A stretch of DNA of 29,475 nucleotides from a virus (lineage: Duplodnaviria; Heunggongvirae; Uroviricota; Caudoviricetes): positions 1 to 29,475 of the IMG/VR virus record IMGVR_UViG_2778261167_000005; one strand, given 5' to 3'. Under the pieces are notes generated by a model. It did not search any database, was not told the origin of the DNA, and saw only the letters and a program-made list of their open reading frames with translations. Each line of letters opens with the position of its first letter. Position 1 is the stretch's first letter. Made by a program: the position numbers and the translations under genes. Shown piece after piece: positions 501-14,931 of this stretch.

Positions 501-604
501 GCAAGGCAACTAAGCCTGCATTAATGCCAACTTTTAGCGCACGGCTCTCTCCCAAGAGCCATTTCCCTGGACCGAATACAGGAATCGTATTCGGTCTCTT
601 TTTA
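501..604 (+). ncRNA. sdsR: Small RNA resembling SdsR (RyeB), with sigma-S type -10 box and intrinsic terminator
   Basis: TCTATTCTTAA at 486..496 fits the sigma-S -10 consensus; transcript would begin near GCAAGGCAAC (501..510); internal hairpins at 527..536 and 544..561; perfect 10-bp stem GACCGAATAC/GTATTCGGTC (570..596) then TCTTTTT. Identity is from memory of the SdsR sequence and the yebY-adjacent locus. Confidence 0.55.
570..604 (+). terminator. Intrinsic terminator (3' end of the SdsR-like sRNA)
   Basis: 10-bp perfect stem, 7-nt loop AGGAATC, then TCTTTTTA. Confidence 0.75.
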
Positions 605-638
605 TGTGCTTGTTTTCGTTGGGTTTTTTCTGTGCTAT

Positions 639-667
639 CACGAAATCCCACGAAAATTACTCGAAAT
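639..667. repeat. Three direct repeats C(A/T)CGAAA(A/T) at about 10-bp spacing next to the int 3' end; candidate integrase arm-type sites within attL
   Basis: cacgaaat (639..646), cacgaaaa (649..656), ctcgaaat (660..667). Confidence 0.3.
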
Positions 668-680
668 TTCCATATCCTGT

Positions 681-1766
681 CTAAACCATAACATATTCTG
701 CACCGCGTGCGTCTAGGTATTTTTTGGTCATTGTTAAATTTTTATGCCCCAGCAGTCTCTGTGCGAAATCCTCTCCGCGCTCCCTTTCATACAGTCTGCT
801 CGCCAAGCTCCTGATCTCATGGAAAGGAGGGGGGTTGGGACCAAACTTTAACTCCGTAGAATCCCGGATGTCAGAAAATGCCTGGGTAATTCCGTCCGGA
901 GTTAACGGACCAGGCTTCCTGCCTCCACGTCTCACCGCTGAATACAGCATGAAGTCTGACGGGTTGTTTTTCCTGCAACGTTCGATAACATCCTGCAATA
1001 CCAAATCAGCAGAGTCCAGCCGCAAATCAAGTGGCAACGCCAATTTGTGACCTGTCTTTTCCTGTGTGACAAACAACCTTCCATCCCTGATATCGCTGAA
1101 TCTGAACAACGATACGTCCTCTCTTCTTTGCCCGGTGACAAGTGCCAGGTCACATGCGTTTGCAGCCCATTCGGAATGGGCTGTTGCGGCATCCCTTATT
1201 ATCTCAAACTGTTCAAGCAAAAGACGCTCACGCTTCACTTTGGGTGTCGGCGTTCTTGTCGGCTCTGCCGGATTCCTTTCAATATGTCCCTCGACGATCG
1301 CCTCCCTGAAAATATCCAACAATACCGAACGCAGGCCGGAGGCCATGCTCTTCTTATCGCAGAGTATGTAACTCTCCAGGAAAGTAGATATGTCCTTTGT
1401 GCTGACCGCCGATAGCGGCATGCACCCGAATTCATCACTGATAGTGGCGATCTGGTTGCGCCTGACCTTCATCGTGTTGGGCTTCAATTCTCTTCGCTCA
1501 AGAATTACTTCGTAGCGCTCAAGCCACGCTTTCACCGTAAAAGTTGGTGTTTCTTTTATGCGGTCCAGTAGCGCTGACGGAAGGTAATTCTGTTCGATGT
1601 AGTTATTGGCTTCGATGGCCTGAGAAATGGCGTCCTTTCTGTCGATCCGGCCAAGAGATAACTCTTGACCGGTAATCGGGTTTCGCCAGCTATAAAGCCT
1701 GTCTCTTTTACGATAGGTCAGGTTACGGGGCAGGTTAGCGTCGTAACGAACTGGCCTTTTCGCCAT
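681..1766 (-). CDS. int: Tyrosine recombinase, lambda-family phage integrase
   Basis: 361-aa ORF; C-terminal catalytic region ends ...HEIRSLASRLY...LLGHKNLTMTKKYLD... consistent with the R-H-R-Y tyrosine recombinase fold; sits at the prophage end next to the att region; GGAGAG RBS. Confidence 0.85.
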   Translation of the reverse strand: MAKRPVRYDANLPRNLTYRKRDRLYSWRNPITGQELSLGRIDRKDAISQAIEANNYIEQNYLPSALLDRIKETPTFTVKAWLERYEVILERRELKPNTMKVRRNQIATISDEFGCMPLSAVSTKDISTFLESYILCDKKSMASGLRSVLLDIFREAIVEGHIERNPAEPTRTPTPKVKRERLLLEQFEIIRDAATAHSEWAANACDLALVTGQRREDVSLFRFSDIRDGRLFVTQEKTGHKLALPLDLRLDSADLVLQDVIERCRKNNPSDFMLYSAVRRGGRKPGPLTPDGITQAFSDIRDSTELKFGPNPPPFHEIRSLASRLYERERGEDFAQRLLGHKNLTMTKKYLDARGAEYVMV

Positions 1767-2007
1767 GAGTCAGTCTCTCCAGTAGAGTGCCACCAGTTGG
1801 CAGCGGTATGCGTTTTGCTTTGGGACGAAGGTTCTTTTTGCTCGGATCCACATAGATGGCATCTGGCTGAACCTTATATTCTTTGCCATGAAGTTCCGGA
1901 GCAGGGTAAATACGCCCCTCCCGCGCCCAGCGGCGAAGTGTTGAAAGAGACGGTGGGGTTGAATAAGTTGAATTCGCCCATTCCAGCAGATTAAGAAGCT
2001 TGACCAT
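1735..2007 (-). CDS. xis: Excisionase (Xis-like DNA-binding protein)
   Basis: Small basic protein MVKLLNLLEWANSTYSTPPSLSTLRRWAREGRIYP..., winged-helix-like, resembling lambda Xis; overlaps the int start; start taken at the internal ATG. Confidence 0.65.
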   Translation of the reverse strand: MVKLLNLLEWANSTYSTPPSLSTLRRWAREGRIYPAPELHGKEYKVQPDAIYVDPSKKNLRPKAKRIPLPTGGTLLERLTHGEKASSLRR

Positions 2008-2071
2008 ACTACCTCCGGCTTCCGGCAACTTATTATAGAGCTGCCGGAAAACTGTTAATGAAATATCGTTA

Positions 2072-2314
2072 TCAACTCACCTGACCAGGTAGCGCGCGCA
2101 ACCGGCGCATACCTGTCATCGCCGTGGCCACGTAGCTCGCCTTGCGGTTCACCACTTCCACCCAGACTTTCACACCTTCAACTCTCACCGTGTATGTCTC
2201 CTTCATTTTGCTGCGGCCATAGTCGCCGTAACGTTCTGCATGAGTGGCCAGTGCTATGTCGCATGCCTGACGCGCTAACGGGGATTGCTGATTTGCACGG
2301 TTAATTAGACGCAT
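2072..2314 (-). CDS. Hypothetical early-left-operon protein
   Basis: ORF MRLINRANQQSPLARQ... co-directional with int/xis; start at internal ATG 2314. Confidence 0.4.
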   Translation of the reverse strand: MRLINRANQQSPLARQACDIALATHAERYGDYGRSKMKETYTVRVEGVKVWVEVVNRKASYVATAMTGMRRLRALPGQVS

Positions 2315-2504
2315 GGTCACCGCCTTCTGGATTGGATGGTTGACGGAAAACCGCTCGGGACGGCGACCAATCGCAATATGCATCGGTTTCGGTATGCCCG
2401 AAAATTGCCTTACAGCGACGGATATGAGCGCAGTCGCCGCAGGTCTTACCCTTCGGGAGTTGCATTTTATCGGGGTCTGCCGGGTTATAATTTAGCTCAG
2501 TCAT
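2301..2504 (-). CDS. Small Cys-containing protein (CxxC-x5-C-x12-C), possible zinc-ribbon / Lar-like restriction-alleviation candidate
   Basis: MTELNYNPADPDKMQLPKGKTCGDCAHIRRCKAIFGHTETDAYCDW...; the Lar-like suggestion is positional only (just before recT). Confidence 0.4.
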   Translation of the reverse strand: MTELNYNPADPDKMQLPKGKTCGDCAHIRRCKAIFGHTETDAYCDWSPSRAVFRQPSNPEGGDHASN

Positions 2505-2841
2505 TCCAGGCCTCCAGCTCGTTCTGGATTTCCTCGTCGATCTCGTCATTGGTGGCGTCTTCGTTTAGATAGTCGCGCGCCTCTTTAAGATACTGTTCTC
2601 GGCGTTCGTGGTACCAGGCAGAGAACTCCGGTGACCAGCCGCGACCATTACCTTGAAAATCAACCAGAGCGTTGTCCTCAGCCATACGCTCAACCATGCA
2701 GTCGGCAGTTGTCAGGGCGCATTCCCGGATGTAACCGCGAAGGTGGTTTTTGCGCCACCAAGGACTTACTTTCGAATCGCAACGTCCTTTGAACTCAATT
2801 TCCCAGCGGCGGATGCAGCGTGCGTTTAAAGATTTACTCAT
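2497..2841 (-). CDS. Hypothetical phage protein with acidic C-terminus
   Basis: 114-aa ORF with ATG; overlaps neighbours in operon fashion. Confidence 0.5.
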   Translation of the reverse strand: MSKSLNARCIRRWEIEFKGRCDSKVSPWWRKNHLRGYIRECALTTADCMVERMAEDNALVDFQGNGRGWSPEFSAWYHERREQYLKEARDYLNEDATNDEIDEEIQNELEAWND

Positions 2842-2875
2842 CTCGTTACCGGGAGGGTTCGCCCTCCCGCCTCCC

Positions 2876-3967
2876 TTAAGCCACGTATTCCGGTTTCATA
2901 TCCGCCAGGGTGATGCTGAACTGATCGTGCAGTTCGTCGCCCAGATGACGTTTCGCCGTTGCAAGAACTCGCTCAACTTCCCCAAACCGTTCAGCTGCAT
3001 CCGGTTCATCCGGAGACGGCAGGGAGTTTATCGCGGCTTCAACCTTGTTACGTGAATCAACCAGGTAGTAGCGCTTCACTGCCTTATTCTTCAGCTCGGT
3101 GAACAGGGCAGATCCGAGCGTGGCCTTCGCGCTTTCGATATCAGCGCGCAGTGCTTTGGCGCTATCAACATCCTGCGCAGCATCGATGCGTTCGCGGAAA
3201 TCATCGGCAAGAGCGTCGATATTTACCGACGATTCGTGTGCGCTTTGCGTAGTTGTGACGGTGTCACCTGCGATTTCAGCAACGCTCATTCGTTGGGCTG
3301 AGCCAGGGTTAATAACTTTTTCTTCTCGTTCTTCGACTTCATCGGCACTGTAAACACCGAGAATCACATCAGGGCAGTACAAGCGAGCCCAGCGCTTTAC
3401 CGCGAGATAAGCGAGCTGCTGACGCGGATCACTTGCCCATAGTGTCGAATTACGAACCTGAGCCTGAGAAAGCATGAGTACCAGTTCGCGTGGCTCATCC
3501 TCGCCTTTCATAGTTGCCCACACACGAACTCCTACACCGGCCTCATCCTTTAAATCCCAACCGGGCGCGATGTACTTATTGCCTTTAGAACTGGTTCTCT
3601 CTACAAATCGACCAATGATGTTTTCCCATGGACCAAACCAATCGTAATGAAGGCGATCTTTTGTAGGCGACATGTTGGTAACAACCGCATTAACCAGTTG
3701 AGCTTCGTAACCCAATACTCCGCTATTACCGACGATGTGGGTCTTCTGAGCTACGGCAAAGGGGTCCATACCCCATCGTGCGGCCTGCATGACCACAGCC
3801 ATGCAGGCATCTGGTTTTCCGCGGAAGTGGTCAGGTACAAAAGCGCCACTATTTGCCATCACTGTCGACAAGGTGCGTAGGCGGTCGAAAAGTTCCCCAT
3901 TAGTCAAAATTGAGATGTTATCGATCATTTGCGTCTTGTTTTCGTTGGTAGTAATTGCAGTAGACAT
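2876..3967 (-). CDS. recT: Phage single-strand annealing recombinase (RecT-like)
   Basis: 363-aa ORF directly downstream of the RecE-like exonuclease in the same operon; family assignment rests on synteny and general resemblance to RecT. Confidence 0.6.
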   Translation of the reverse strand: MSTAITTNENKTQMIDNISILTNGELFDRLRTLSTVMANSGAFVPDHFRGKPDACMAVVMQAARWGMDPFAVAQKTHIVGNSGVLGYEAQLVNAVVTNMSPTKDRLHYDWFGPWENIIGRFVERTSSKGNKYIAPGWDLKDEAGVGVRVWATMKGEDEPRELVLMLSQAQVRNSTLWASDPRQQLAYLAVKRWARLYCPDVILGVYSADEVEEREEKVINPGSAQRMSVAEIAGDTVTTTQSAHESSVNIDALADDFRERIDAAQDVDSAKALRADIESAKATLGSALFTELKNKAVKRYYLVDSRNKVEAAINSLPSPDEPDAAERFGEVERVLATAKRHLGDELHDQFSITLADMKPEYVA

Positions 3968-3979
3968 GTTCTTTTCCCC

Positions 3980-6913
3980 TTATGCCTGAGTACGCAGCGC
4001 TTCAAGGCGGCGCAGGTCGAAGTCGTTCAGTTCGTCGGTGTAGTCTTCGGTTATCGGTGCAGACCAGCAATCGGTGTCATACGCATTTGCGAGTGCACGC
4101 ATGGTGCGCTGATACTCCAGCAGCCCGAGGTCGAGCAAATCTTCCGATGCCTCAATTACCGCCACCCAGTGGTAGCCCTCGTCTTTGTTGACGAAGATCC
4201 AGAAGAACTGATCAAAGTCGGCAACGGAGCAATACATGCCAGCGCTGAGGTGGTAGTCGCGGTCGATGATTTCCCGGTGCAGTTTGGCGCGCAAACCGTC
4301 TTGCTTAACGCGTCCCATGCTGATCGTCTTCAGGTCAACACCGATACGAACGCCGTTGATTTGAACCTCAAGGTCAGGGCGCACACGGACTTCCAGACCG
4401 GTTTCGTCGTCCATCCCGAAATAACTTGTTTCCACTGAACGGGAAGGATGGCGCAGCAGTTTCCCGGCTGATTCATGATTCAGTAGGGCTTGCTGAATTG
4501 CCGTGGCCAGCGTCAGTTGTTCTCTGGACAGGATGGTTTTCCCATCAACGCTATCGCGCCATTGCTGCTCAAATTCATCAGCGAAAATGGCCTCCGGGCT
4601 GACCGCGCGTATCGCCGCCTGAAGTTCTTCTTTCTTACCGGTGAGCTTCAGTTGCTCGGCCTTTGGCTTATCCGCGTTAAATTCTCGAATGAACGCCTTC
4701 ATGGAGTCGGTGGTGGTAAACGCCTCAGCCGGAATACCTGGGAATACCGCAAACTCTTCGTGGAGCTTTTCGGGCTCCAGGGCCAGGGTGTGCGCCAGGC
4801 TACCGAACGTCAGCGCCTCGCTGCTTTCGCGACGGATAGTCTTGGTCACGTGACGGCCGTGATAGAACATCAGGCTGACACGTGCGTCTTTCACCTGGGT
4901 TGAGCTGATACCGTTCGCTGCGTGATAAACCTCGTTCGGCAGACCTTCATAGCGGCCAGGTTCGAAGTAAGCAGGGTACACAACACCCGGTTCGTCAGAT
5001 TGAGCTTCTGGCTCGGTTTGGGCCGCAACCGGTTCGGTTTGGTTTACAGAATCGCTGTTTTGGCTAACAGAATCCGCATTCTGGCTCACATCGGCTTGCT
5101 GGCCGGTATGTGACTCTTCACCAGTTTCCAGACTGCTTTCGCCTGACTGCACTTCATCACCAGCCTGTTCTTCATCACTGACAGTTTCTTCCATCTGCAC
5201 ATTGCTGGTGGTTTCCTCATTAAGTGGTGAACGGTTATCTGTTTGGGTTTGTTGATCGCCCATCAGGCCATCAATGGAGAATACGCCGTTGCCCATGTTG
5301 GCGATTTGTGGCTGTTTAGCAGCTGTTTTCTGCTCTGCAGCGACCTGCTCATTAACCTCATTTTCCCAGCTGACGTCCGGCGCATGACCAGCATCAGCCA
5401 GCGTTTCTTCTGAGGGGTTTGAGTGGTCATTTTCGGTTAGATTGGCATTGATATATGCCCGCAACCGCCCAGGAAAGTTAACCAATTCTGATGATGTGCC
5501 GCGGATGAGTGCAAAGATGGCGGCGCGTGAATAGTCCAGGATGCCAGCGGTTTTGCGCAGCGCCTCAGACCATTCGCTGAACGGACTTTCTTTCTTGCTG
5601 ACAATCTCTTTAGCGCGACGGTAGACCCCACCAGGTATGTCGTAGATATTGAAATCCATTGGCAAGGTGGCCAGCGCAATTTCAACATCCAAAGTGTCCA
5701 GTGTGTGGACATAGTCGGTATTACGATCGGTCTTATTTCCACCGCCAGCATTGGTTTTGACGTCAGTACGTTGAATCTGCGCAATGCGGTTACCTTTCTG
5801 CCATTCCTTGACCAGCAGGCCACGGTCGATGTAATCAGTGTTGAACCACACAGTCAGGAACTGGATAACTGTTGCCAGCTCCGGTTTTTTACCGTCGACA
5901 GGGAAGACTTTCTTAACAGCATTCACGACTTTATGAATATCGTGCTCAATGGCTTTTTTGAATGCTTCCACATTCTCAGCAGCCAGCAGCAGGTTCTGGA
6001 TGTACGTGTCATCAGTGTCCATCTCAAGGCGGACAATCTCGTTTTTCTGCCCAGCGTCGATGTGATAGAGATATTCACCATCACCGATGAACTGAGCCAG
6101 TACGCGCTGACGGAATGGCAGGGTGGCTACGACGATCAGGTTCGGCTGATCTGGCTGCTGAGATTGTTCTTCGGGACCGACTTCATCACCAACGCTGGTG
6201 GTTTCAGTTTTGAGCAGAGGAAACCTTCCACTGCGCCAGTCTTCAACCAGTTGATTGCGATCACCTGCTTCTGCGTTCACCCAGTCAGACATGAAAGCAG
6301 CGATCACTTCAGGTCCATGCTCTTCACCCTGTTCGAAGATGTCTTTAATCGCCTGAATCATTTTCCACTCAGCATTAAGACTGAGTTCGCCAACTTCAGG
6401 AACATCATTTTTAACCTGCAGCAAGTTCTGGAGATAGGTATTGCTTTCGGCCAGTGACATTTCGCTGGCAGCCAGCTGCTGCTCTTTAGTGACGTGAGTC
6501 TGGTACTTATCGCTCATCAGATGGAAGGCAAAACGGACTGCTGGAGTGCGGTTTTCTAACGATACATTCTCGTCAGAAGTCGCTACTTCATCGGTATTTT
6601 TTACATCGGCAGGGATAGTGGTGACAACGTCGCCAGCGGCCTTTGGCAGCCAGGTGCGCCCGTCGTCCTGTAGTTCGTAACGATCACACCAGGTGAAATC
6701 AACTTCACCTTCTTCCGGCAGGTCATCAACAACAGGAAAATCTGTGCGAATTGGTTTAGCGTAGTCCTTGCCACGACCGGTCTCGATACCTGCATCTTCC
6801 AGCGCAACGTCCAGCATCAGGTTGGCGCGAGCCTCAGTTTTTGCAGTGAACCAGATAAAAGCATCAGGCTTTCCCGACTTTTGTGTGGCTTTAACTACAT
6901 ATGGAAATTCCAT
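3980..6913 (-). CDS. recE: Exodeoxyribonuclease VIII (RecE-like 5'-3' dsDNA exonuclease, PD-(D/E)XK C-terminal domain)
   Basis: 977-aa ORF; C-terminal region (...YFEPGRYEGLPNEVYHAANGISSTQVKD..., ...RPDLEV...DLKT...) resembles the RecE nuclease domain; long acidic low-complexity linker; paired with recT. Confidence 0.7.
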   Translation of the reverse strand: MEFPYVVKATQKSGKPDAFIWFTAKTEARANLMLDVALEDAGIETGRGKDYAKPIRTDFPVVDDLPEEGEVDFTWCDRYELQDDGRTWLPKAAGDVVTTIPADVKNTDEVATSDENVSLENRTPAVRFAFHLMSDKYQTHVTKEQQLAASEMSLAESNTYLQNLLQVKNDVPEVGELSLNAEWKMIQAIKDIFEQGEEHGPEVIAAFMSDWVNAEAGDRNQLVEDWRSGRFPLLKTETTSVGDEVGPEEQSQQPDQPNLIVVATLPFRQRVLAQFIGDGEYLYHIDAGQKNEIVRLEMDTDDTYIQNLLLAAENVEAFKKAIEHDIHKVVNAVKKVFPVDGKKPELATVIQFLTVWFNTDYIDRGLLVKEWQKGNRIAQIQRTDVKTNAGGGNKTDRNTDYVHTLDTLDVEIALATLPMDFNIYDIPGGVYRRAKEIVSKKESPFSEWSEALRKTAGILDYSRAAIFALIRGTSSELVNFPGRLRAYINANLTENDHSNPSEETLADAGHAPDVSWENEVNEQVAAEQKTAAKQPQIANMGNGVFSIDGLMGDQQTQTDNRSPLNEETTSNVQMEETVSDEEQAGDEVQSGESSLETGEESHTGQQADVSQNADSVSQNSDSVNQTEPVAAQTEPEAQSDEPGVVYPAYFEPGRYEGLPNEVYHAANGISSTQVKDARVSLMFYHGRHVTKTIRRESSEALTFGSLAHTLALEPEKLHEEFAVFPGIPAEAFTTTDSMKAFIREFNADKPKAEQLKLTGKKEELQAAIRAVSPEAIFADEFEQQWRDSVDGKTILSREQLTLATAIQQALLNHESAGKLLRHPSRSVETSYFGMDDETGLEVRVRPDLEVQINGVRIGVDLKTISMGRVKQDGLRAKLHREIIDRDYHLSAGMYCSVADFDQFFWIFVNKDEGYHWVAVIEASEDLLDLGLLEYQRTMRALANAYDTDCWSAPITEDYTDELNDFDLRRLEALRTQA

Positions 6914-7052
6914 GTGAGATCCTCATTTTTGGGTGTTAGAATCCCCGAGCCATTGATAGCGCCCATTGGGTTAACTTTGGTTTTAATGTTGTTTCCGGTG
7001 TAACTTTGGTCGGTGGCACCGGACGTAGATCCCGCCTTGCGCGGGTTTTACG

Positions 7053-7214
7053 TTAGCCTTCGTGAGCCATCTGGTCGTGCGAAGCGCAACGTTTGGAACA
7101 ATACTCTTTCTCTTTGCGCGCCAGCTGTGAGCCGTTTCGATAGAGAAGGGTGCTTTTTATTACTTCTTCCGGTTTAACCGGTTTGCTGCAATAACCGCAT
7201 TTCTTGTCTTGCAT
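7053..7214 (-). CDS. Small Cys4 zinc-ribbon protein (YdaE-like position in Rac)
   Basis: Hand-translated 53 aa, not in the ORF track: MQDKKCGYCSKPVKPEEVIKSTLLYRNGSQLARKEKEYCSKRCASHDQMAHEG; CxxC...CxxxC. Confidence 0.5.
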   Translation of the reverse strand: MQDKKCGYCSKPVKPEEVIKSTLLYRNGSQLARKEKEYCSKRCASHDQMAHEG

Positions 7215-7225
7215 GACACTCTCCG

Positions 7226-7432
7226 TTAATGGCTGAGGCCATTCCCCAGACCGTTCAGATAAACTTCAACCAGCAAATCCCTGGTGTAAGTCATCTCAAC
7301 GCCTCGATGCAGATACAAACGACCACGAGCGTTAGCTGATGCTGTCCAGGTTGAGTCTTTGTGTTTGACGAGCATCCCAGGCTGAACTGCGCCGCGGTTT
7401 ACCGTCTGTGTACCGTAGTACTGATGAACCAT
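7226..7432 (-). CDS. Hypothetical small protein, first gene of the leftward operon (Kil-like by position)
   Basis: Start taken at ATG 7432 (MVHQYYG...) with GGAG RBS; alternative GTG start at 7534. Kil assignment is positional only. Confidence 0.35.
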   Translation of the reverse strand: MVHQYYGTQTVNRGAVQPGMLVKHKDSTWTASANARGRLYLHRGVEMTYTRDLLVEVYLNGLGNGLSH

Positions 7433-7666
7433 GATGTTCTCCAGTTTTTCTGAGTGAACTTCGCTGGTGGTGCCGTCGTGCTGATCTTCACAGTTGAGCG
7501 TTTTAACTCTGCAGTTCACCACCGCGAAGCTCACTTCTGTTTTGCCTTATAGCCGGCCAGCTGAGCGTTAAACCTGATGCGCGTTATTCAATCCACCTCA
7601 TCCGACTATTCATATGCCGTCGGCGGCTACTTCGTGGGCGTCCTGCCTGAGTGGTTCGTGTTGCGA

Positions 7667-7705
7667 TGGAGTAAGTAAAGCACCATTTTACTTTATGGTC
7701 AAACA
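7667..7705 (-). promoter_or_regulatory. Leftward early promoter PL with operator palindrome AGTAAA-N7-TTTACT
   Basis: Minus strand reads TTGACC (-35), 17-bp spacer, TTTACT (-10); the operator at 7675..7693 overlaps the spacer and -10; 35-nt stretch is nearly identical to the PR region at 9563..9598. Confidence 0.6.
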
Positions 7706-7845
7706 AAAGGTGTTCTACGTGGAGGATGTTGCGTGACGGAAGGCAAAAAAATCGGCGCGATGGCTGAGATCGGAGAGAGGAGCAGGCATTTAGCATGTTC
7801 GTCACTCGGTGCTAATCTTTCTGGGTGGCACAACGGAGCGGAACG

Positions 7846-8043
7846 ATGAAGAGCAAAGACGAACAGACTGGGTTGGTTGGCTTGGCGATTGGCGCGGCAG
7901 TGATTGGCTTGGTATCAGTTCAAAAACCCATTAACCGGGCGAGCATCATTGACGAACTGGTGAGACTGGGGAGACAGAAGGGCGATGGCGTTCAGGATGA
8001 GGTGTTTGAGAAGGCGGCGGAGCTGGTGAGTAAAGGGGTATAA
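7846..8043 (+). CDS. Small hydrophobic protein (65 aa), probable single-pass membrane peptide
   Basis: ATG at 7846 with GGAG 7 nt upstream; MKSKDEQTGLVGLAIGAAVIGLVSV...; lies between PL and the repressor-linked moron, convergent with it. Confidence 0.45.
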   Translation: MKSKDEQTGLVGLAIGAAVIGLVSVQKPINRASIIDELVRLGRQKGDGVQDEVFEKAAELVSKGV

Positions 8044-8066
8044 AAACCCGGCGCGATGGCCGGGTC
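8041..8066 (-). terminator. Intrinsic terminator for the minus-strand gene 8100..9020
   Basis: Stem CCCGGC/GCCGGG (8047..8064) with TTTTTA on the minus-strand 3' side (8041..8046). Confidence 0.6.
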
Positions 8067-8099
8067 ATATATTAGTCATCATTCGTATGAAACTAAAAA

Positions 8100-9020
8100 T
8101 TAAAAAGGTAAATCAATTTGCCTTTGTGGGTTGATTATTTTTTTTACCTTCACTATCTCATATGAGGTTTTTATACCTTTATCAGCAAGATACTGAGTGA
8201 TTTTTAGATCAACGAGCAAAAGGTCGCCTTTTGCAAAAGCAACTGATTGCTCATCAATCGCATTGAGGAATTTCTCATCACTGACCTCGGCTTGAAATGG
8301 GCTTGCACCATCTGAAAAATTCCATTTATGGCCTTCTCGAAATGAGATATCAAGAGGATGAAGTGCTCTTTCTGTAACGGACTCAGAAATAATAGTTTCT
8401 TCAGTGCTGTCTACTTTGAAAAAACATGCTTCACTCTTTGTAACTTCAACAAAAGTATGACCATCATCGATAGTGACTGCAAAACTATCGATCCCATCCC
8501 TCTCCAATGGTTTAGAGATTACATTCTCAAGAGCTCTGCGTATTTTTTTATTTTTATATAAATCTATGACTTGATTGTCAAAAACCTCACTTTCATCATC
8601 GATGAAAATTGTGGAGCTACCGTCAAATGTTGGCTCAATACGTTTAATTTTTTTTGGACCTAACCATTTTATTAGCTGAATCAGGCCCTTATATGACTGC
8701 TTAGTGGCTAAGTAGCCAAAACCTACCAAGCTTATGATATTGCAAGCAGCGGAAGCATTATTTCCAGAAAAAACACCTAGTATTTGACTTGTTATGGATG
8801 TTGACTGCGCTATGAGATCAATTCCAAAGGAACCCGCTTTAAATGAAGCGTTGACTTTAATTGATATACGCCTTTCTTTTCCATAGATAGTTTTTCCCGC
8901 CTCTTCTAAAGCATCGGATAGTGACAAAAGCGCCGGCGCAAGATCACGTACATCCATCTCGTGCGTGTCCAAAGCTGGGCCGTCGTAAACTATTCTGAAC
9001 TTCATATCGTCACTATCCAT
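8100..9020 (-). CDS. Uncharacterized 306-aa protein in a low-GC moron downstream of the repressor (rex/sieB-equivalent position)
   Basis: Long ORF with ATG at 9020; distinctly AT-rich compared with flanking phage genes; co-oriented with the repressor; own terminator; no motif I recognise. Confidence 0.6.
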   Translation of the reverse strand: MDSDDMKFRIVYDGPALDTHEMDVRDLAPALLSLSDALEEAGKTIYGKERRISIKVNASFKAGSFGIDLIAQSTSITSQILGVFSGNNASAACNIISLVGFGYLATKQSYKGLIQLIKWLGPKKIKRIEPTFDGSSTIFIDDESEVFDNQVIDLYKNKKIRRALENVISKPLERDGIDSFAVTIDDGHTFVEVTKSEACFFKVDSTEETIISESVTERALHPLDISFREGHKWNFSDGASPFQAEVSDEKFLNAIDEQSVAFAKGDLLLVDLKITQYLADKGIKTSYEIVKVKKIINPQRQIDLPF

Positions 9021-9135
9021 CAATGCCTATCCTGTGCATGATTATAAACCTGATCGTATATACAGTACATTTAATAAGTCATTACTTAGATGTTCTCTTA
9101 CCCACTGCTACTCTCTATGCACTGACCAGAGGTCT

Positions 9136-9519
9136 TCAATCCCCCTGCGATCTGATCCGCCCCTTCATGTACTTCTCATACAACTCATCCAACTCTTTCA
9201 GGCGAATGGCAAAGATGCGGAGCATGTTCTGTTGCTCTTCTTCCGGTAGTTGGCGGTAGAGCTCCAGCAGACGCTGTTCGTCCGGCTTGAGGCCGTCTTT
9301 CTCATCGACATCCTCACCGAGTAACCAAGGTACCGAAACGCCAGCTGCATCAGCGATGGCCAGTGCAGATTGTTTGCTAATCCTTCCTGTTTTGAACCAG
9401 CTGGATACAGCTTGCTTACTGACACCAGCAATCTTGGCCATCTCCGTTTTGGAGAAGCCTTTATTGTTCAGTTCTGTGAGTCTCGAAATAAGACCGTCTG
9501 TCAATGTGTTTTCACTCAT
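9136..9519 (-). CDS. Prophage repressor, HTH XRE-family (RacR/CI-like, no peptidase domain)
   Basis: 127 aa from ATG 9519; HTH segment KTEMAKIAGVSKQAVSSWFK; divergent from the Cro-like gene; operators in the 97-bp intergenic region. Confidence 0.75.
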   Translation of the reverse strand: MSENTLTDGLISRLTELNNKGFSKTEMAKIAGVSKQAVSSWFKTGRISKQSALAIADAAGVSVPWLLGEDVDEKDGLKPDEQRLLELYRQLPEEEQQNMLRIFAIRLKELDELYEKYMKGRIRSQGD

Positions 9520-9616
9520 CTCATGATTGTAAATGATTGCTTTACTCTCTGATAGGGATGTATTGTTTGACACGTCAGTAAAACAATGCTTTACTTCCTT
9601 CATCTAAGGAGGTCCC
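9520..9616. promoter_or_regulatory. Immunity switch region: PR promoter plus two operators (O1 9577..9595, O2 9528..9546) and a candidate PRM
   Basis: PR: TTGACA 9567..9572, 17-bp spacer, TTTACT 9590..9595, AGGAGG RBS 9607..9612. O1 AGTAAAacaatgcTTTACT; O2 TGTAAAtgattgcTTTACT. Minus-strand TACAAT lies immediately before the repressor ATG. Confidence 0.65.
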
Positions 9617-9826
9617 ATGACTGGTATTGAAAATGCAATTCTCCGATCTGGCTCGGCCAGCGCGCTTGGCGCTTTGATCGGCGTTTCAAAAATGGCTGTT
9701 TCGCTGTGGCGCCGTAAAGGAATTCCTGCCGAACGAGTGCTACCAGTGTTTGAGGCAACCGGCGTAACGCCCCACGAACTGCGCCCAGATCTCTACCCAA
9801 ATCCCACTGACGGTTTACCAAAGTAG
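9617..9826 (+). CDS. Cro-like HTH regulator (YdaS-like)
   Basis: 69 aa, strong AAGGAGG RBS; HTH LGALIGVSKMAVSLWRRKG; first gene of the rightward operon, divergent from the repressor. Confidence 0.7.
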   Translation: MTGIENAILRSGSASALGALIGVSKMAVSLWRRKGIPAERVLPVFEATGVTPHELRPDLYPNPTDGLPK

Positions 9827-9837
9827 GAGCACTAACC

Positions 9838-10377
9838 ATGCAGACACTTACTTATCAGAATGATAGCGACATTACTCAAGGGGTAATGATAAATCGCGCT
9901 CAAGCGCGCAGGGGGCCGAGCCATGAAGATATTCGTGACGCGGTTCGCTCCTGGGCTGGCGCCGATGGCCAGGACGTAGTCACGGCTCTGATCATCGAAG
10001 AGTACCTGGCGCAAGGAGGTGATGAGATCACTTTTCCTGATGATCTCTGCCGAAAACGCCAGAAGCTGTTCCGCTTTCTGGACAACCACTTCAACAGTGA
10101 ACGGTACCGCGAGAACGTTCGCCAGCTGACTCCGGCAATCCTCGCAGTTCTGCCGATTGAATACCGCAACCGTCTGCTGCCAGAAGACAACATCATGGCT
10201 CGCCTGGCACGTATGGAGAAGGAAACCAGCGAAGCGAAGATAGCTGTCGCAATGGATGCGCCGCGTCATCAGAAGCTGAAAGAGCTGAGTGAAGGGATCG
10301 TGGAGATGTACCGCGTTGACCCTGGCTTAACCGGGCCGCTGATGGAAATGGTGCAGATGATGCTGGGGGTTGTATGA
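9838..10377 (+). CDS. YdaT-like protein (Rac YdaT family)
   Basis: 179 aa; conserved-looking segments EEYLAQGGDE and LTPAILAVLP recall E. coli YdaT; sits immediately after the Cro/YdaS-like gene as in Rac. Confidence 0.55.
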   Translation: MQTLTYQNDSDITQGVMINRAQARRGPSHEDIRDAVRSWAGADGQDVVTALIIEEYLAQGGDEITFPDDLCRKRQKLFRFLDNHFNSERYRENVRQLTPAILAVLPIEYRNRLLPEDNIMARLARMEKETSEAKIAVAMDAPRHQKLKELSEGIVEMYRVDPGLTGPLMEMVQMMLGVV

Positions 10378-10541
10378 CGGGTTCAAAAATGGCGAAAGCC
10401 GTGGTGCTCGAACACCAACGGCCTTCAGGTGCAAATGTAGAGACAAATGCAAAATCAGTATGCCCACACAATCATATTTTTACCAGTGGAAGTTCTGTTC
10501 ACTGGAACGATCTCATCGCTTTCATTTATCAGGAGGACGCA

Positions 10542-12748: not shown

Positions 12749-13381
12749 TTATTTTTTCATGACTCGTTTGGCTTTGCGTTCCATGCGGTTTAATGCCGCT
12801 CTTGAGTCGATCCGGTTCAAGTCTGCCTTACTTCGGATTAGACGTTCTTTCGGGTTCCATCCATGATCTAACTCAATTCGGAGTTGTTTCCGGATATCTG
12901 CTGATAAAGCTGCAACTTTCAGCCCTAAATCTGCGTAGAGCCTCCGGCGTTTCAACATGTATGAATCCATCATATCACTACCGAACTCCGGGTTAGAGGT
13001 CATCTCACGAAGTTCTTCTCTGACTTTCAACAATTCGATATCGATTGATTGCAAACGATAGATTAAGGTTGGTTCAAGGTACTTATATTCGCCTTTAACT
13101 GTGCTCATATCGAAATCAGGCGAGGGAACTTGTACTTCGAGACGGTCCGGATAATCCGGTTCCGGTGAGCTTGCATCGAATCCCCGATCCCAGGAAACAT
13201 CTGCACACTGACTAACGAATTTATCGAGCAGGAACACAAGTTGAACACTAATGTAAGCGCGTTCCTCTTTACGCTTTCTTATGTCGAACGCAACTTCTTT
13301 GATCAGGTTGAAACAAAGTGGAAAACCGATTGCAGCAGCACCAGCTAAAAAGCCTTGCATAGCAGGACTAAGACCGAACAT
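12749..13381 (-). CDS. Uncharacterized membrane-anchored protein (N-terminal TM helix), opposite-strand moron
   Basis: ORF on the minus strand inside a plus-strand operon; N-terminal hydrophobic segment FLAGAAAIGFPLCFNLI; lower GC; start uncertain (ATG 13381, ATG 13360 or TTG 13408), no clear SD. Confidence 0.5.
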   Translation of the reverse strand: MFGLSPAMQGFLAGAAAIGFPLCFNLIKEVAFDIRKRKEERAYISVQLVFLLDKFVSQCADVSWDRGFDASSPEPDYPDRLEVQVPSPDFDMSTVKGEYKYLEPTLIYRLQSIDIELLKVREELREMTSNPEFGSDMMDSYMLKRRRLYADLGLKVAALSADIRKQLRIELDHGWNPKERLIRSKADLNRIDSRAALNRMERKAKRVMKK

Positions 13382-13685
13382 ATGTGGACACCGAAAGAGA
13401 GCGAGCAAAGGATTATAAACGTAGTGATGGGGTGATTAAAACGCGTTGAACTGGCTGTTTTGAAATGGACTTTTAAACTTTGACTAAGGTCATTAAATCA
13501 TCGCGATTTGAAGTTTAAGCGAAAATAGTTGATGAGGGGTATTGACCTTTAGTGCTCGCCGGTGACAAGCCAACTCAGGAAGAGATTAATGATGCTGTAA
13601 GGGACGCGCGAATTACCCATCCGTGGAAATTCGCCTGGCATTGATTGATGTATAATCCCTCTCAATGTATCGAGGGGGATTATAC

Positions 13686-14197: not shown

Positions 14198-14691
14198 TCG
14201 ATCGATAATACCGATCGATTTGATTAAATTGATCTATGAAATCGATTATCAAATAAGCACAGCGCAGCAACAAATTACCAACCTGACTTTCCTCGCCACG
14301 AGTGAAATATGTCCCCTGACGACATCGACACCTTTGTCATTTACCTGACGAGAGCATTCCAATCAGATATTTACAATCGACAGTTTTGACGTAGCCATCT
14401 GTTAAAAATAACGATCAATTTTTGCGCGAAAGTAGCAATAAAATTTATCTAAATCAATCGGATAAATGACCTTGCGCAAACAGGCCTTTCATGTGCATAC
14501 TTAAGCAAAACAGACAAATACTGTTTATATGTACAGTTGTTTTGGAGTATAGTTAAGATGTTGCAGTAAATAGTTTTATTTTTCTTCCAGCCAACCTATT
14601 AGGAAATTCGTGCCATTTGGTATGTTGGTTCAGTGAACGGGATTATCCCGGCTGGAAGAGTGAAATTTGTTGATAGCAAAGAGGGGGTTTT

Positions 14692-14931
14692 GTGAAGGAA
14701 AGTCAGGAGCAAGGCGATTGGTACGACATTATCAGGCGTTCTGATGGAAAGCTTATGGCCTCAATGCCACTGGATCGTCAGTATCTCGTCTATAGCAGAA
14801 ATGGCCTGGTATCATGCCGTCCATTACTGGAGGATGAAGGGGTCTTCAACCTTTCATCTGGGACTCGTTTTCTTCGCCGACTTGGCTACCGCATCACCCA
14901 ACCCTCTGATATCATAATATCAACGGATTGA
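14692..14931 (+). CDS. Hypothetical small protein (GTG start)
   Basis: 79 aa; GAGGGGG 5 nt upstream of GTG 14692. Confidence 0.45.
   Translation: MKESQEQGDWYDIIRRSDGKLMASMPLDRQYLVYSRNGLVSCRPLLEDEGVFNLSSGTRFLRRLGYRITQPSDIIISTD

Follow-up and report, generated by a model that had tools for sequence, protein, structure and literature searches.

[quoted passage not shown]

PL and PR, the early promoters that drive leftward and rightward transcription in the prophage described here, have a common cassette, and the sequence makes it very probable that both are overlapped by the same 19-bp repressor operator, forming a lambda-like switch whose repressor would be freed by a candidate antirepressor. 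The prophage, a lambdoid element of the Gifsy/Rac type, was analysed as a single stretch of 29,475 nucleotides (IMG/VR record IMGVR_UViG_2778261167_000005, hereafter the window). The cassette pair adds one more example of a well-known design, ordinary for lambdoid phages, and does not represent a new one.

Gene order of the prophage

The early region is arranged as recT-recE-ydaE-kil transcribed leftward from PL, then the cargo interval, the repressor transcribed leftward from PRM, and cro (YdaS)-cII (YdaT)-O transcribed rightward from PR. The genes on which the argument depends are:

681-1766: integrase gene, adjoining the RyeA/SdsR small-RNA locus
2876-3967, minus strand: recT
3980-6913, minus strand: recE
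7053-7214, minus strand: ydaE-like gene
7226-7432, minus strand: kil (septation inhibitor), first gene of the PL operon
9136-9519, minus strand: immunity repressor, 127 aa, with an N-terminal HTH (HTH_3 / Phage_CI_repr)
9617-9826, plus strand: Cro analogue of the YdaS family, first gene of the PR operon (PF15943, 1.6e-12; phrog_35)
9838-10377, plus strand: CII analogue of the YdaT family (PF06254, 6.8e-26; phrog_163, CII-like)

Replication genes follow the cII analogue in the PR operon. The closest E. coli prophages, which are ~85% identical in the conserved parts, are annotated in the order RecE - YdaE - Kil - ... - HTH protein / transcriptional regulator - YdaT - replication proteins. As expected of a lambdoid switch, the repressor (9136-9519, minus) and cro (9617-9826, plus) are divergent with sites at 9528-9546 and 9577-9595 between them, and a second operator of apparently the same specificity lies over the leftward early promoter (7674-7702); a YdaS-family Cro followed by a YdaT-family CII is in turn the arrangement of the Rac and CP-933P right operons. 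The repressor resembles the short HTH repressors of the Gifsy type (~130-150 aa; GfoR/GfhR/GtgR, DicA, RacR) in having no cleavage domain; its only Pfam match is to HTH_3 / Phage_CI_repr over residues 12-70, with none to Peptidase_S24, and a further in-frame ATG, at 9603, would lengthen its ORF. A PDB sequence search with the repressor returned only spurious repeat matches (polyubiquitin, BurrH) and a weak HTH match, and tblastn gave weak matches, at 29-33% identity, to repressors annotated DicA.

The PL and PR cassettes

The sequence-only reading of the window had proposed that PL and PR are near-identical promoter-operator cassettes about 1.9 kb apart. The cassettes are indeed there, at 7674-7702 (minus) and 9567-9595 (plus), and their positions agree with the promoters they were taken for, as one lies before the cro-like YdaS gene, pointing away from the repressor, and the other heads kil-ydaE-recE-recT. 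To call them near-identical was generous for an inverted match of 32/42, and the minus-strand coordinates given were ~2 nt off, the TTGTTTGAC block beginning at 7706 and not at 7705. The palindrome AGTAAA-N7-TTTACT that had been described over the spacer and -10 of both is perfect at 7674-7692 and 9577-9595, and a scan of the window for it, which that reading had suggested, gave three matches with at most one mismatch, all at the expected sites. The third of these is the degenerate copy reported at 9528-9546, which carries one mismatch (TGTAAA) and overlaps the likely -10 of PRM. The elements of the three sites are:

7674-7702, minus strand: PL core promoter with OL1 (motif scan; same position in 22 relatives)
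7702-7697, minus strand: PL -35, TTGACC
7692-7674, minus strand: PL palindrome (OL1), AGTAAAATGGTGCTTTACT
7682-7681 and 7679-7674, minus strand: PL TG and -10-like TTTACT
about A7667, minus strand: predicted start of the PL transcript
9567-9595, plus strand: PR core promoter with OR1 (motif scan, conservation)
9567-9572, plus strand: PR -35, TTGACA
9577-9595, plus strand: PR palindrome (OR1), AGTAAAACAATGCTTTACT
9587-9588 and 9590-9595, plus strand: PR TG and TTTACT
about A9602, plus strand: predicted start of the PR transcript, with the SD AAGGAGG and the cro ATG at 9617
9528-9546: predicted distal right operator, TGTAAATGATTGCTTTACT, 49 bp from OR1 and conserved in relatives
9531-9526, minus strand: likely PRM -10, TACAAT, overlapped by the distal right operator

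The longest inverted repeat in the region 7000-10400 pairs 7665-7706 with 9563-9604, a match of 42 nt at 76% complementarity whose arms are 1856 nt apart, and the blocks common to both arms are TTGTTTGAC, AGTAAAA and TGCTTTACTT. Within it the PL cassette reads TTGACCATAAAGTAAAATGGTGCTTTACT (minus strand, 7702-7674) and the PR cassette TTGACACGTCAGTAAAACAATGCTTTACT (plus strand, 9567-9595). The three matches to the palindrome in 29.5 kb compare with 0.00 in 100 shuffles, and allowing two mismatches adds one unrelated match at 17624; the full cassette TTGAC-N6-GTAAA-N4-TGnTTTACT occurs twice in 29.5 kb with no mismatch, 0.02 occurrences being expected even with up to three mismatches.

A 32/42 inverted match was, however, reached in 3/100 dinucleotide shuffles of the 3.4-kb region, and significance is therefore drawn from motif structure, position and conservation and not from raw identity. 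A likeness of 42 nt that is not very improbable, much of it made up of promoter consensus, is also what would be seen if two strong sigma-70 promoters were merely alike, the palindrome arising by chance from TTTACT and an AGTAAA that has nothing to do with it, with the real operators elsewhere. We consider this very improbable, partly because the third palindrome, at the start of the repressor gene, comes without a -35, and further evidence against it is found in the related prophages below.

A simple promoter scan called neither PL nor PR, because the second position of the -10 hexamer is not an A in TTTACT, and their status as promoters consequently rests on context and conservation. An A at -11 is nearly universal in -10 hexamers. 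With a spacing of 17 bp and a TGn, TTTACT matches 4/6 of the -10 positions and has no -11 A, and the alternative -10, TACTTn, has the -11 A but needs a 19-bp spacer. Either could serve as the -10 of PL and PR, and the operator covers the hexamer in both cases.

On the repressor side only 6 nt separate the end of the PRM TACAAT from the repressor ATG at 9519, so that the repressor mRNA should be leaderless, and there are precedents for this in CP-933P (PMC8630535) and Rac (PMC9638921). There is only one operator site on the left side of the window, and the two right-hand sites are not adjacent but 49 bp apart, so pairwise cooperativity in the style of lambda cannot be assumed.

Conservation of the operator and repressor in related prophages

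Scanning one genome per species with the repressor identified 18 further loci at 70-86% identity, and almost all of these carry a second PR-like cassette, downstream of the repressor gene and oriented like PL. As automated detection of PL was mis-registered in two relatives (L009 and L012), the position of PL was taken instead from the leader RNA described below. When the PL and PR of the window, of phage mEp237 and of five relatives with the same operator class (L003, L004, L005, L011 and L020) are aligned, the only sequences invariant in 14/14 cassettes are TTGAC, GTAAA, TG and TTTACT; the bases separating the -35 from the left half-site, the centre of the operator and the downstream sequence all vary. 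The TG is conserved on the promoter-proximal (-10) side only, which fits an extended -10. GTAAA in contrast falls within the spacer, a part of the promoter that should contain no element of its own and where contact with polymerase would not conserve it, and its invariance is thus difficult to square with two promoters that merely resemble each other.

Four operator classes were found among 22 related prophages, each common to the PL and PR of its own element: GTAAA..TTTAC in two spacer variants, TAAACA-N3-TGTTTA and TTAAG-N7-CTTAA. Two E. coli relatives with other immunity regions likewise each repeat their own palindrome at PL and PR, TTAAGTCTnAGGCTTAA in L001 and TAAACATnnnTGTTTA in L002. 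In an alignment of the 22 repressors the C-terminal half is nearly invariant (GEDVGEKDGLKPDEQRLLELYRQLPEEEQQNMLRIFAIRLKELDELYEKYMKGRIR) and the N-terminal HTH falls into four types, which match the four operator classes. Heteroimmune relatives therefore exchange the whole palindrome along with the HTH domain, which again argues against an accidental palindrome. Invariant half-sites in 14 cassettes whose flanks drift, together with a class of operator that covaries with the HTH, are the pattern expected if the palindrome is the repressor operator, and the earlier proposal that it is one gains considerably from these comparisons. The same pattern would be expected if this repressor family changes immunity specificity by swapping the HTH module and both operator sets together.

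A second left site, GTAAAGCnnTGCTGTACT, lies 46 bp upstream of OL1 in 5/6 of the same-class relatives; it is degenerate in mEp237 and missing in the window. No description of an operator class of the form rGTAAA-N7-TTTACy was found in the literature.

Cro and repressor share operators in lambdoid switches, and it could be asked if the palindrome is chiefly a target of the Cro-like YdaS or the CII-like YdaT and not of the leftward repressor. Binding of both YdaS and YdaT to the intergenic region is described for Rac and CP-933P (PMC8630535, PMC11879457). Use of the operators by Cro is, however, already part of the switch that we propose, the YdaT box as published (TTGATT-N6-AATCAA) is absent from the surroundings of PL, PR and the start of ydaT, and the operator class tracks the HTH of the repressor. 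It would therefore seem highly unlikely that either protein, in place of the repressor, is the main ligand of the palindrome.

The interval between the repressor and PL

It had also been suggested that PL is far from the repressor with accessory genes in between, and this describes the window well, the interval being occupied by a low-GC defence-candidate gene and a 72-aa ORF:

7825-8043, plus strand: small ORF, 72 aa (65 aa from the ATG at 7846), phrog_3975, divergent from PL
8044-8066, minus strand: predicted intrinsic terminator, an 8-bp GC-rich hairpin then UUUUUAU (-15.7 kcal/mol, z = -3.2)
8100-9023, minus strand: cargo gene, 307 aa, matching defence candidate PDC-S42 (PADLOC PDLC05015, 1.3e-87; phrog_3243)

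The GC content of the cargo gene is 36-38%, against ~50% in the flanks. The terminator hairpin can form on the plus strand too, where it follows the 72-aa ORF, a degenerate relic of it is found at 7746-7775, and mEp237 has a similar small ORF and terminator at the equivalent place. No terminator is predicted in the window between the repressor and the cargo gene, which together with the strong one after it suggests that the cargo is expressed with the repressor in the lysogen; the two are probably co-transcribed from PRM. Among the relatives the distance from repressor to PL ranges from ~0.5 kb, with no cargo (L011, L015 and L016), to 2.9 kb in mEp237, which has five small genes there, and the genes in between differ from element to element. 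The interval thus behaves as a variable cargo slot, comparable to that which holds rexAB between cI and OL in lambda.

The DNA just upstream of PL in the window looks rearranged, OL2 having been lost and the terminator relic duplicated, and the PL copy of the cassette could on this basis be a non-functional relic of recombination, with the left operon driven from elsewhere. We regard this as extremely improbable, as the core cassette of PL is intact with 0 mismatches, PL is at the equivalent place in all relatives, the leader RNA directly after it is under strong structural selection, and a promoter search from 7700 to kil found nothing better than the PL cassette.

The separation of the two cassettes bears on how the operators are used. 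In lambda, CI octamers bridge OL and OR, and this OL-OR loop is well established. Operators that are real in the window could likewise work mainly as one long-range unit, with repressor oligomers bridging OL1 and the OR sites over 1.9 kb and the single OL site serving above all to make repression of PR more stable and to mediate autoregulation of PRM. Such bridging would benefit an element that, like the window, has just one OL site and OR sites set far apart, and PaaR2 of CP-933P, which has OL and OR sites, forms octamers (PMC8630535). The Gifsy-1 repressor GfoR on the other hand elutes as a dimer (PMC3121763), and the OL-OR distance of 0.5-2.9 kb among the relatives shows no sign of constraint. 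We think looping unlikely to be the main role of these sites, and the reading preferred is that each operator acts over its own promoter.

Comparison with characterised phages

The window has in common with lambda a divergent repressor and cro, the same operator over the core promoters of PL and PR, an autoregulatory site over PRM, and accessory or exclusion genes between repressor and PL that are expressed in the lysogen (in the window, probably so); in both, these genes place OL and OR ~2 kb apart. It differs in having two OR sites separated by 49 bp and one OL site where lambda has three adjacent sites on each side, in a repressor of 127 aa without the S24 self-cleavage domain of CI, in having no N after PL, and in a Cro and CII that belong to the YdaS and YdaT families.

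By layout the closest experimentally characterised analogue is CP-933P, which also has a YdaS-type Cro and a YdaT-type CII. Its PL has a -35 and -10 identical to those of PR along with similar operators, and lies beyond the toxin-antitoxin cargo paaA2-parE2, which is situated between paaR2 and PL933P; PL933P is repressed ~100-fold by PaaR2 and by YdaS, and PRM is leaderless (PMC8630535). The cargo in the window is instead the PDC-S42 defence candidate, and the CP-933P operators are different, being 18-bp palindromes of the GTTTAGTAA type with three or four per region (PMC8630535).

GfoR and GfhR of Gifsy-1 and Gifsy-3 are, by their description, like the repressor of the window in being short and non-cleavable, and these prophages carry recE/recT in the left operon (PMC3121763). 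The upstream in-frame ATG of the window repressor, which gives an N-terminally extended ORF, resembles GfhR* (PMC3121763); that paper lists no operator sequences for the Gifsy phages. Rac has the same order of recE-ydaE-kil ... repressor / ydaS-ydaT-replication, several intergenic palindromic operators and a leaderless repressor promoter, but the RacR operator is (T/A)TAGGC-N3-GCCTA(T/A) (PMC9638921), and operators are described in the racR-ydaS intergenic region only, with no PL-side operator, in the portions available of the two Rac studies (PMC9638921, PMC11879457). The repressor of the window is ~29% identical to the one annotated dicA in 'Escherichia phage Rac' (MN652886.1).

The closest sequenced phage is the temperate coliphage mEp237 (JQ182730), whose repressor is 86% identical and is linked by a depositor's note in the record to a regulator of S. 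Typhimurium 14028S. It matches the window in the class of its PR, distal-OR and PL sites, in its kil/recE left arm and in the leader RNA, carries a homologue of the 79-aa ORF discussed below, and differs from the window in its five small cargo genes over 2.9 kb and in keeping a degenerate OL2; both the operators and the leader RNA are unannotated in its record. HK639 also resembles the window, with pL annotated ~1.9 kb from cI and four genes between.

A model for the switch and its induction

Binding of the repressor to its sites, the order in which they would be occupied, the points at which transcription starts and the route of induction are all deduced from sequence and analogy, and the following scheme would be consistent with them. 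In the lysogen the repressor would be made from a probably leaderless PRM transcript that would also carry the defence-candidate cargo gene. Bound at OR1 and OL1 it would exclude sigma-70 RNA polymerase from PR and PL, since each site covers both spacer and -10 region, and this would silence cro-cII-replication to the right and kil-recE-recT and further genes to the left. The third site over the PRM -10, presumably weaker, may provide negative autoregulation of the repressor and may also be the place where the YdaS-type Cro shuts off repressor synthesis.

As the repressor has no self-cleavage domain, the most likely inducer is a small antirepressor under LexA control, and a candidate is found to the right of the replication genes:

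14519-14538, plus strand: LexA box, tACTGTttatatgtACAGtt (perfect), upstream of the 79-aa ORF
14692-14931: 79-aa ORF, candidate SOS-controlled antirepressor, just before ninB

A LexA box and a small ORF are likewise found to the right of the replication genes and before ninB in Gifsy (PMC3121763). The window has no dinI homologue between the LexA box and the small ORF, unlike Gifsy and unlike mEp237, in which the order is LexA box, dinI homologue and then the homologue of the 79-aa ORF. Homologues of this ORF occur only in phages whose repressor belongs to this family. In Gifsy the repressors stay uncleaved and are released from DNA by LexA-controlled antirepressors, which act across heteroimmune repressors (PMC3121763), and by analogy the product of 14692-14931 may bind the conserved C-terminal domain and so free the repressor from both operators at once. 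The C-terminal ~58 aa of the repressor, which are nearly invariant among heteroimmune relatives, would be the natural target for it.

A structured RNA in the PL leader

When the PL regions are aligned, conservation is highest not in the promoter but in a part of the leader beginning ~14 nt after the predicted start, within the 230 nt that precede kil:

7593-7654, minus strand: 62-nt three-helix RNA, starting ~14 nt after the predicted PL start

Its closing helix, P1, is CCACU/GGUGG; P2 (GGC-N5-GCC) is a small invariant hairpin, joined by the invariant linker CACGAAGUAGC to P3 (CCGAC-N13-GUCGG), a hairpin with a 13-nt loop. Folding the leader as a single sequence was uninformative (z = +1.4), and the structure was revealed by alignment alone. 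RNAalifold on 18 diverse copies found compensatory changes at 9/13 pairs, and 98% of the cells in the same alignment can pair, against 23-44% when the partners are slid.

BLAST finds the same ~50 nt in SfV, SfII, SfIV, ST64B, ZF40, YeP1-3, pAEv1818, SPN3UB and others; in SfV, ST64B, ZF40, YeP1, pAEv1818 and SPN3UB it is found 100-170 nt past the repressor gene, in DNA that carries no annotation, and these six have repressors of differing types, of which some include a peptidase domain and others do not. The RNA is thus conserved, with compensatory changes, behind PL in these six as well as in mEp237 and e14 despite their differing repressors; in e14, a prophage of E. coli K-12, it is found between ymfK and ymfJ, on the minus strand of NC_000913.3 at about 1,202,101-1,202,185 in the ymfJ leader. 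An exact 14-mer scan of IMG/VR gave at least 120 loci, and 63 of the first 80 listed match the covariance model; among the 59 distinct sequences in those 63, 10/13 pairs covary and 96.6% of cells pair. The RNA core is present in 1467/5426 complete E. coli genomes and is never annotated. Rfam 15 has no match to 7400-7720 at the gathering threshold or at E<=10, and a literature search with the core sequence returned only unrelated yeast primers.

The put RNAs of HK022 and HK639 are similar to the leader RNA in that they are cis-encoded, structured, roughly 60-70 nt long and located directly after PL in N-less lambdoid phages. They are however formed of two long stem-loops where the leader RNA has a closing helix and two hairpins, and the leader RNA, by the covariance model, is single-copy in each genome with none after PR, where put RNAs are found after both PL and PR. 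The covariance model (R1, built on 18 leaders) had no match in HK022 (L022, L029) or in HK639 33000-39000, including the annotated putL-like RNA; by eye the putL sequences of HK022 and HK639 are alike and neither is like the leader RNA, and identity with put was rejected.

Tentatively, PL could be the front end of a two-part module, a repressor-gated promoter followed by a leader RNA that perhaps represents an undescribed class of phage cis-acting RNA, although we would put the chances of this at somewhat below even. Our best guess, held with modest confidence, is that the RNA acts on elongation or termination of PL transcripts in N-less phages, and the most attractive candidate modes are anti-termination, anti-Rho or anti-pausing, either independent of protein or dependent on a host factor. 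A search of the minus strand from 600 to 7600 found no convincing intrinsic terminator in the PL operon of the window, and a classical role in read-through is accordingly not obvious.

Implications

The operator rGTAAA-N7-TTTACy would be the immunity specificity of one enterobacterial group of Gifsy/Rac-like prophages, and the operator and repressor data should be useful for annotating prophages and for predicting heteroimmunity and cross-induction between them. They also mark the interval between the repressor and PL as a cargo slot, which here holds a candidate anti-phage defence gene. The leader RNA could matter more than the operator, since it is widespread, unannotated and also present in E. 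coli K-12, and it offers a testable lead on early leftward control in N-less lambdoid phages. If the proposal is true, PL and PR have a common 'off' switch but differ in how elongation from them is controlled.

Integration site and defence candidates

Rfam matches and the integrase place the prophage at a small-RNA locus, and a further small-RNA match falls in its late region:

463-607: genes for the small RNAs SraC/RyeA and SdsR/RyeB (Rfam scores of 177 and 116 bits)
681-1766: prophage integrase, directly adjoining these genes
18157-18253, plus strand: match to isrI, an Hfq-binding sRNA (Rfam, 57.6 bits; gathering score 45)

As the small-RNA genes adjoin the integrase, the prophage is located at the bidirectional SraC/RyeA-SdsR/RyeB sRNA locus, which in enterobacteria is known as a hot spot for insertion.

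Two genes match phage-defence candidates in PADLOC:

8100-9023, minus strand: cargo gene with a 307-aa product, between the repressor gene and PL (the predicted leftward early promoter); PDC-S42, 1.3e-87
12749-13408, minus strand: second candidate, within the rightward early region; PDC-S67, 2.5e-29

The cargo gene has a GC content of 36-38%, against about 50% in its flanks, and in the lysogen it is probably carried on one transcript with the repressor. The PDC-S67-like gene runs against the orientation of its neighbours, a reversal that is moron-like.

The surroundings of PL

Directly 3' of PL lies a structured RNA supported by covariation, with copies elsewhere:

7593-7654, minus strand: three-helix RNA of 62 nt
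6102-6186, minus strand: copy in L152 (E. coli K-12 e14)
about 2486-2569: copies in six further compared sequences (L023-L028)

Covariation in this single-copy leader RNA is strong (9-10 of 13 pairs, with 97-98% of cells paired), and it has no entry in Rfam 15; the put RNA of HK022/HK639 was considered as an identity and rejected, the two being unrelated. Many lambdoid phages with differing repressor types carry the leader RNA behind PL, and 27% of the complete E. coli genomes contain it; in phages and genomes alike it is always unannotated.

Upstream of PL, five of the six relatives sharing the window's operator type (L003, L004, L005, L011 and L020) have a second operator on the left, GTAAAGCnnTGCTGTACT, which lies 46 bp upstream of the operator palindrome over PL; it is degenerate in the sixth, coliphage mEp237, and is missing from the window when 7706-7824 is compared with those five. 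In the same interval the terminator at 8042-8060 recurs as a degenerate duplicate (7746-7764), and the 72-aa small ORF has left a truncated remnant, which suggests a local rearrangement or insertion.

Repressor and antirepressor candidate

Three features bear on the repressor and its control:

9520-9603, minus strand: in-frame upstream extension of the repressor ORF (ATG at 9603, 28 further codons)
14519-14538, plus strand: perfect LexA box, upstream of the 79-aa ORF
14692-14931, plus strand: 79-aa ORF, immediately 5' of ninB

The extension corresponds to GfhR*, the version with a longer N terminus that is seen once Gifsy-3 is induced (PMC3121763), and in the mEp237 record the longer repressor is the annotated one. 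Homologues of the 79-aa ORF are confined to phages with the window's repressor family, and in mEp237 a LexA box and dinI gene precede the homologue; with the Gifsy phages as model, the ORF is likely an SOS-controlled antirepressor candidate.

The repressor was compared across the window, mEp237 and L001-L020 (prophages with a related repressor), 22 heteroimmune prophages in all, from about a dozen genera of enterobacteria. Its C-terminal half (residues about 70-127) hardly differs among them, while four types can be told apart in the HTH half. The family is a clean example of modular exchange, in which specificity is swapped as a module against a fixed, putative partner-binding domain.
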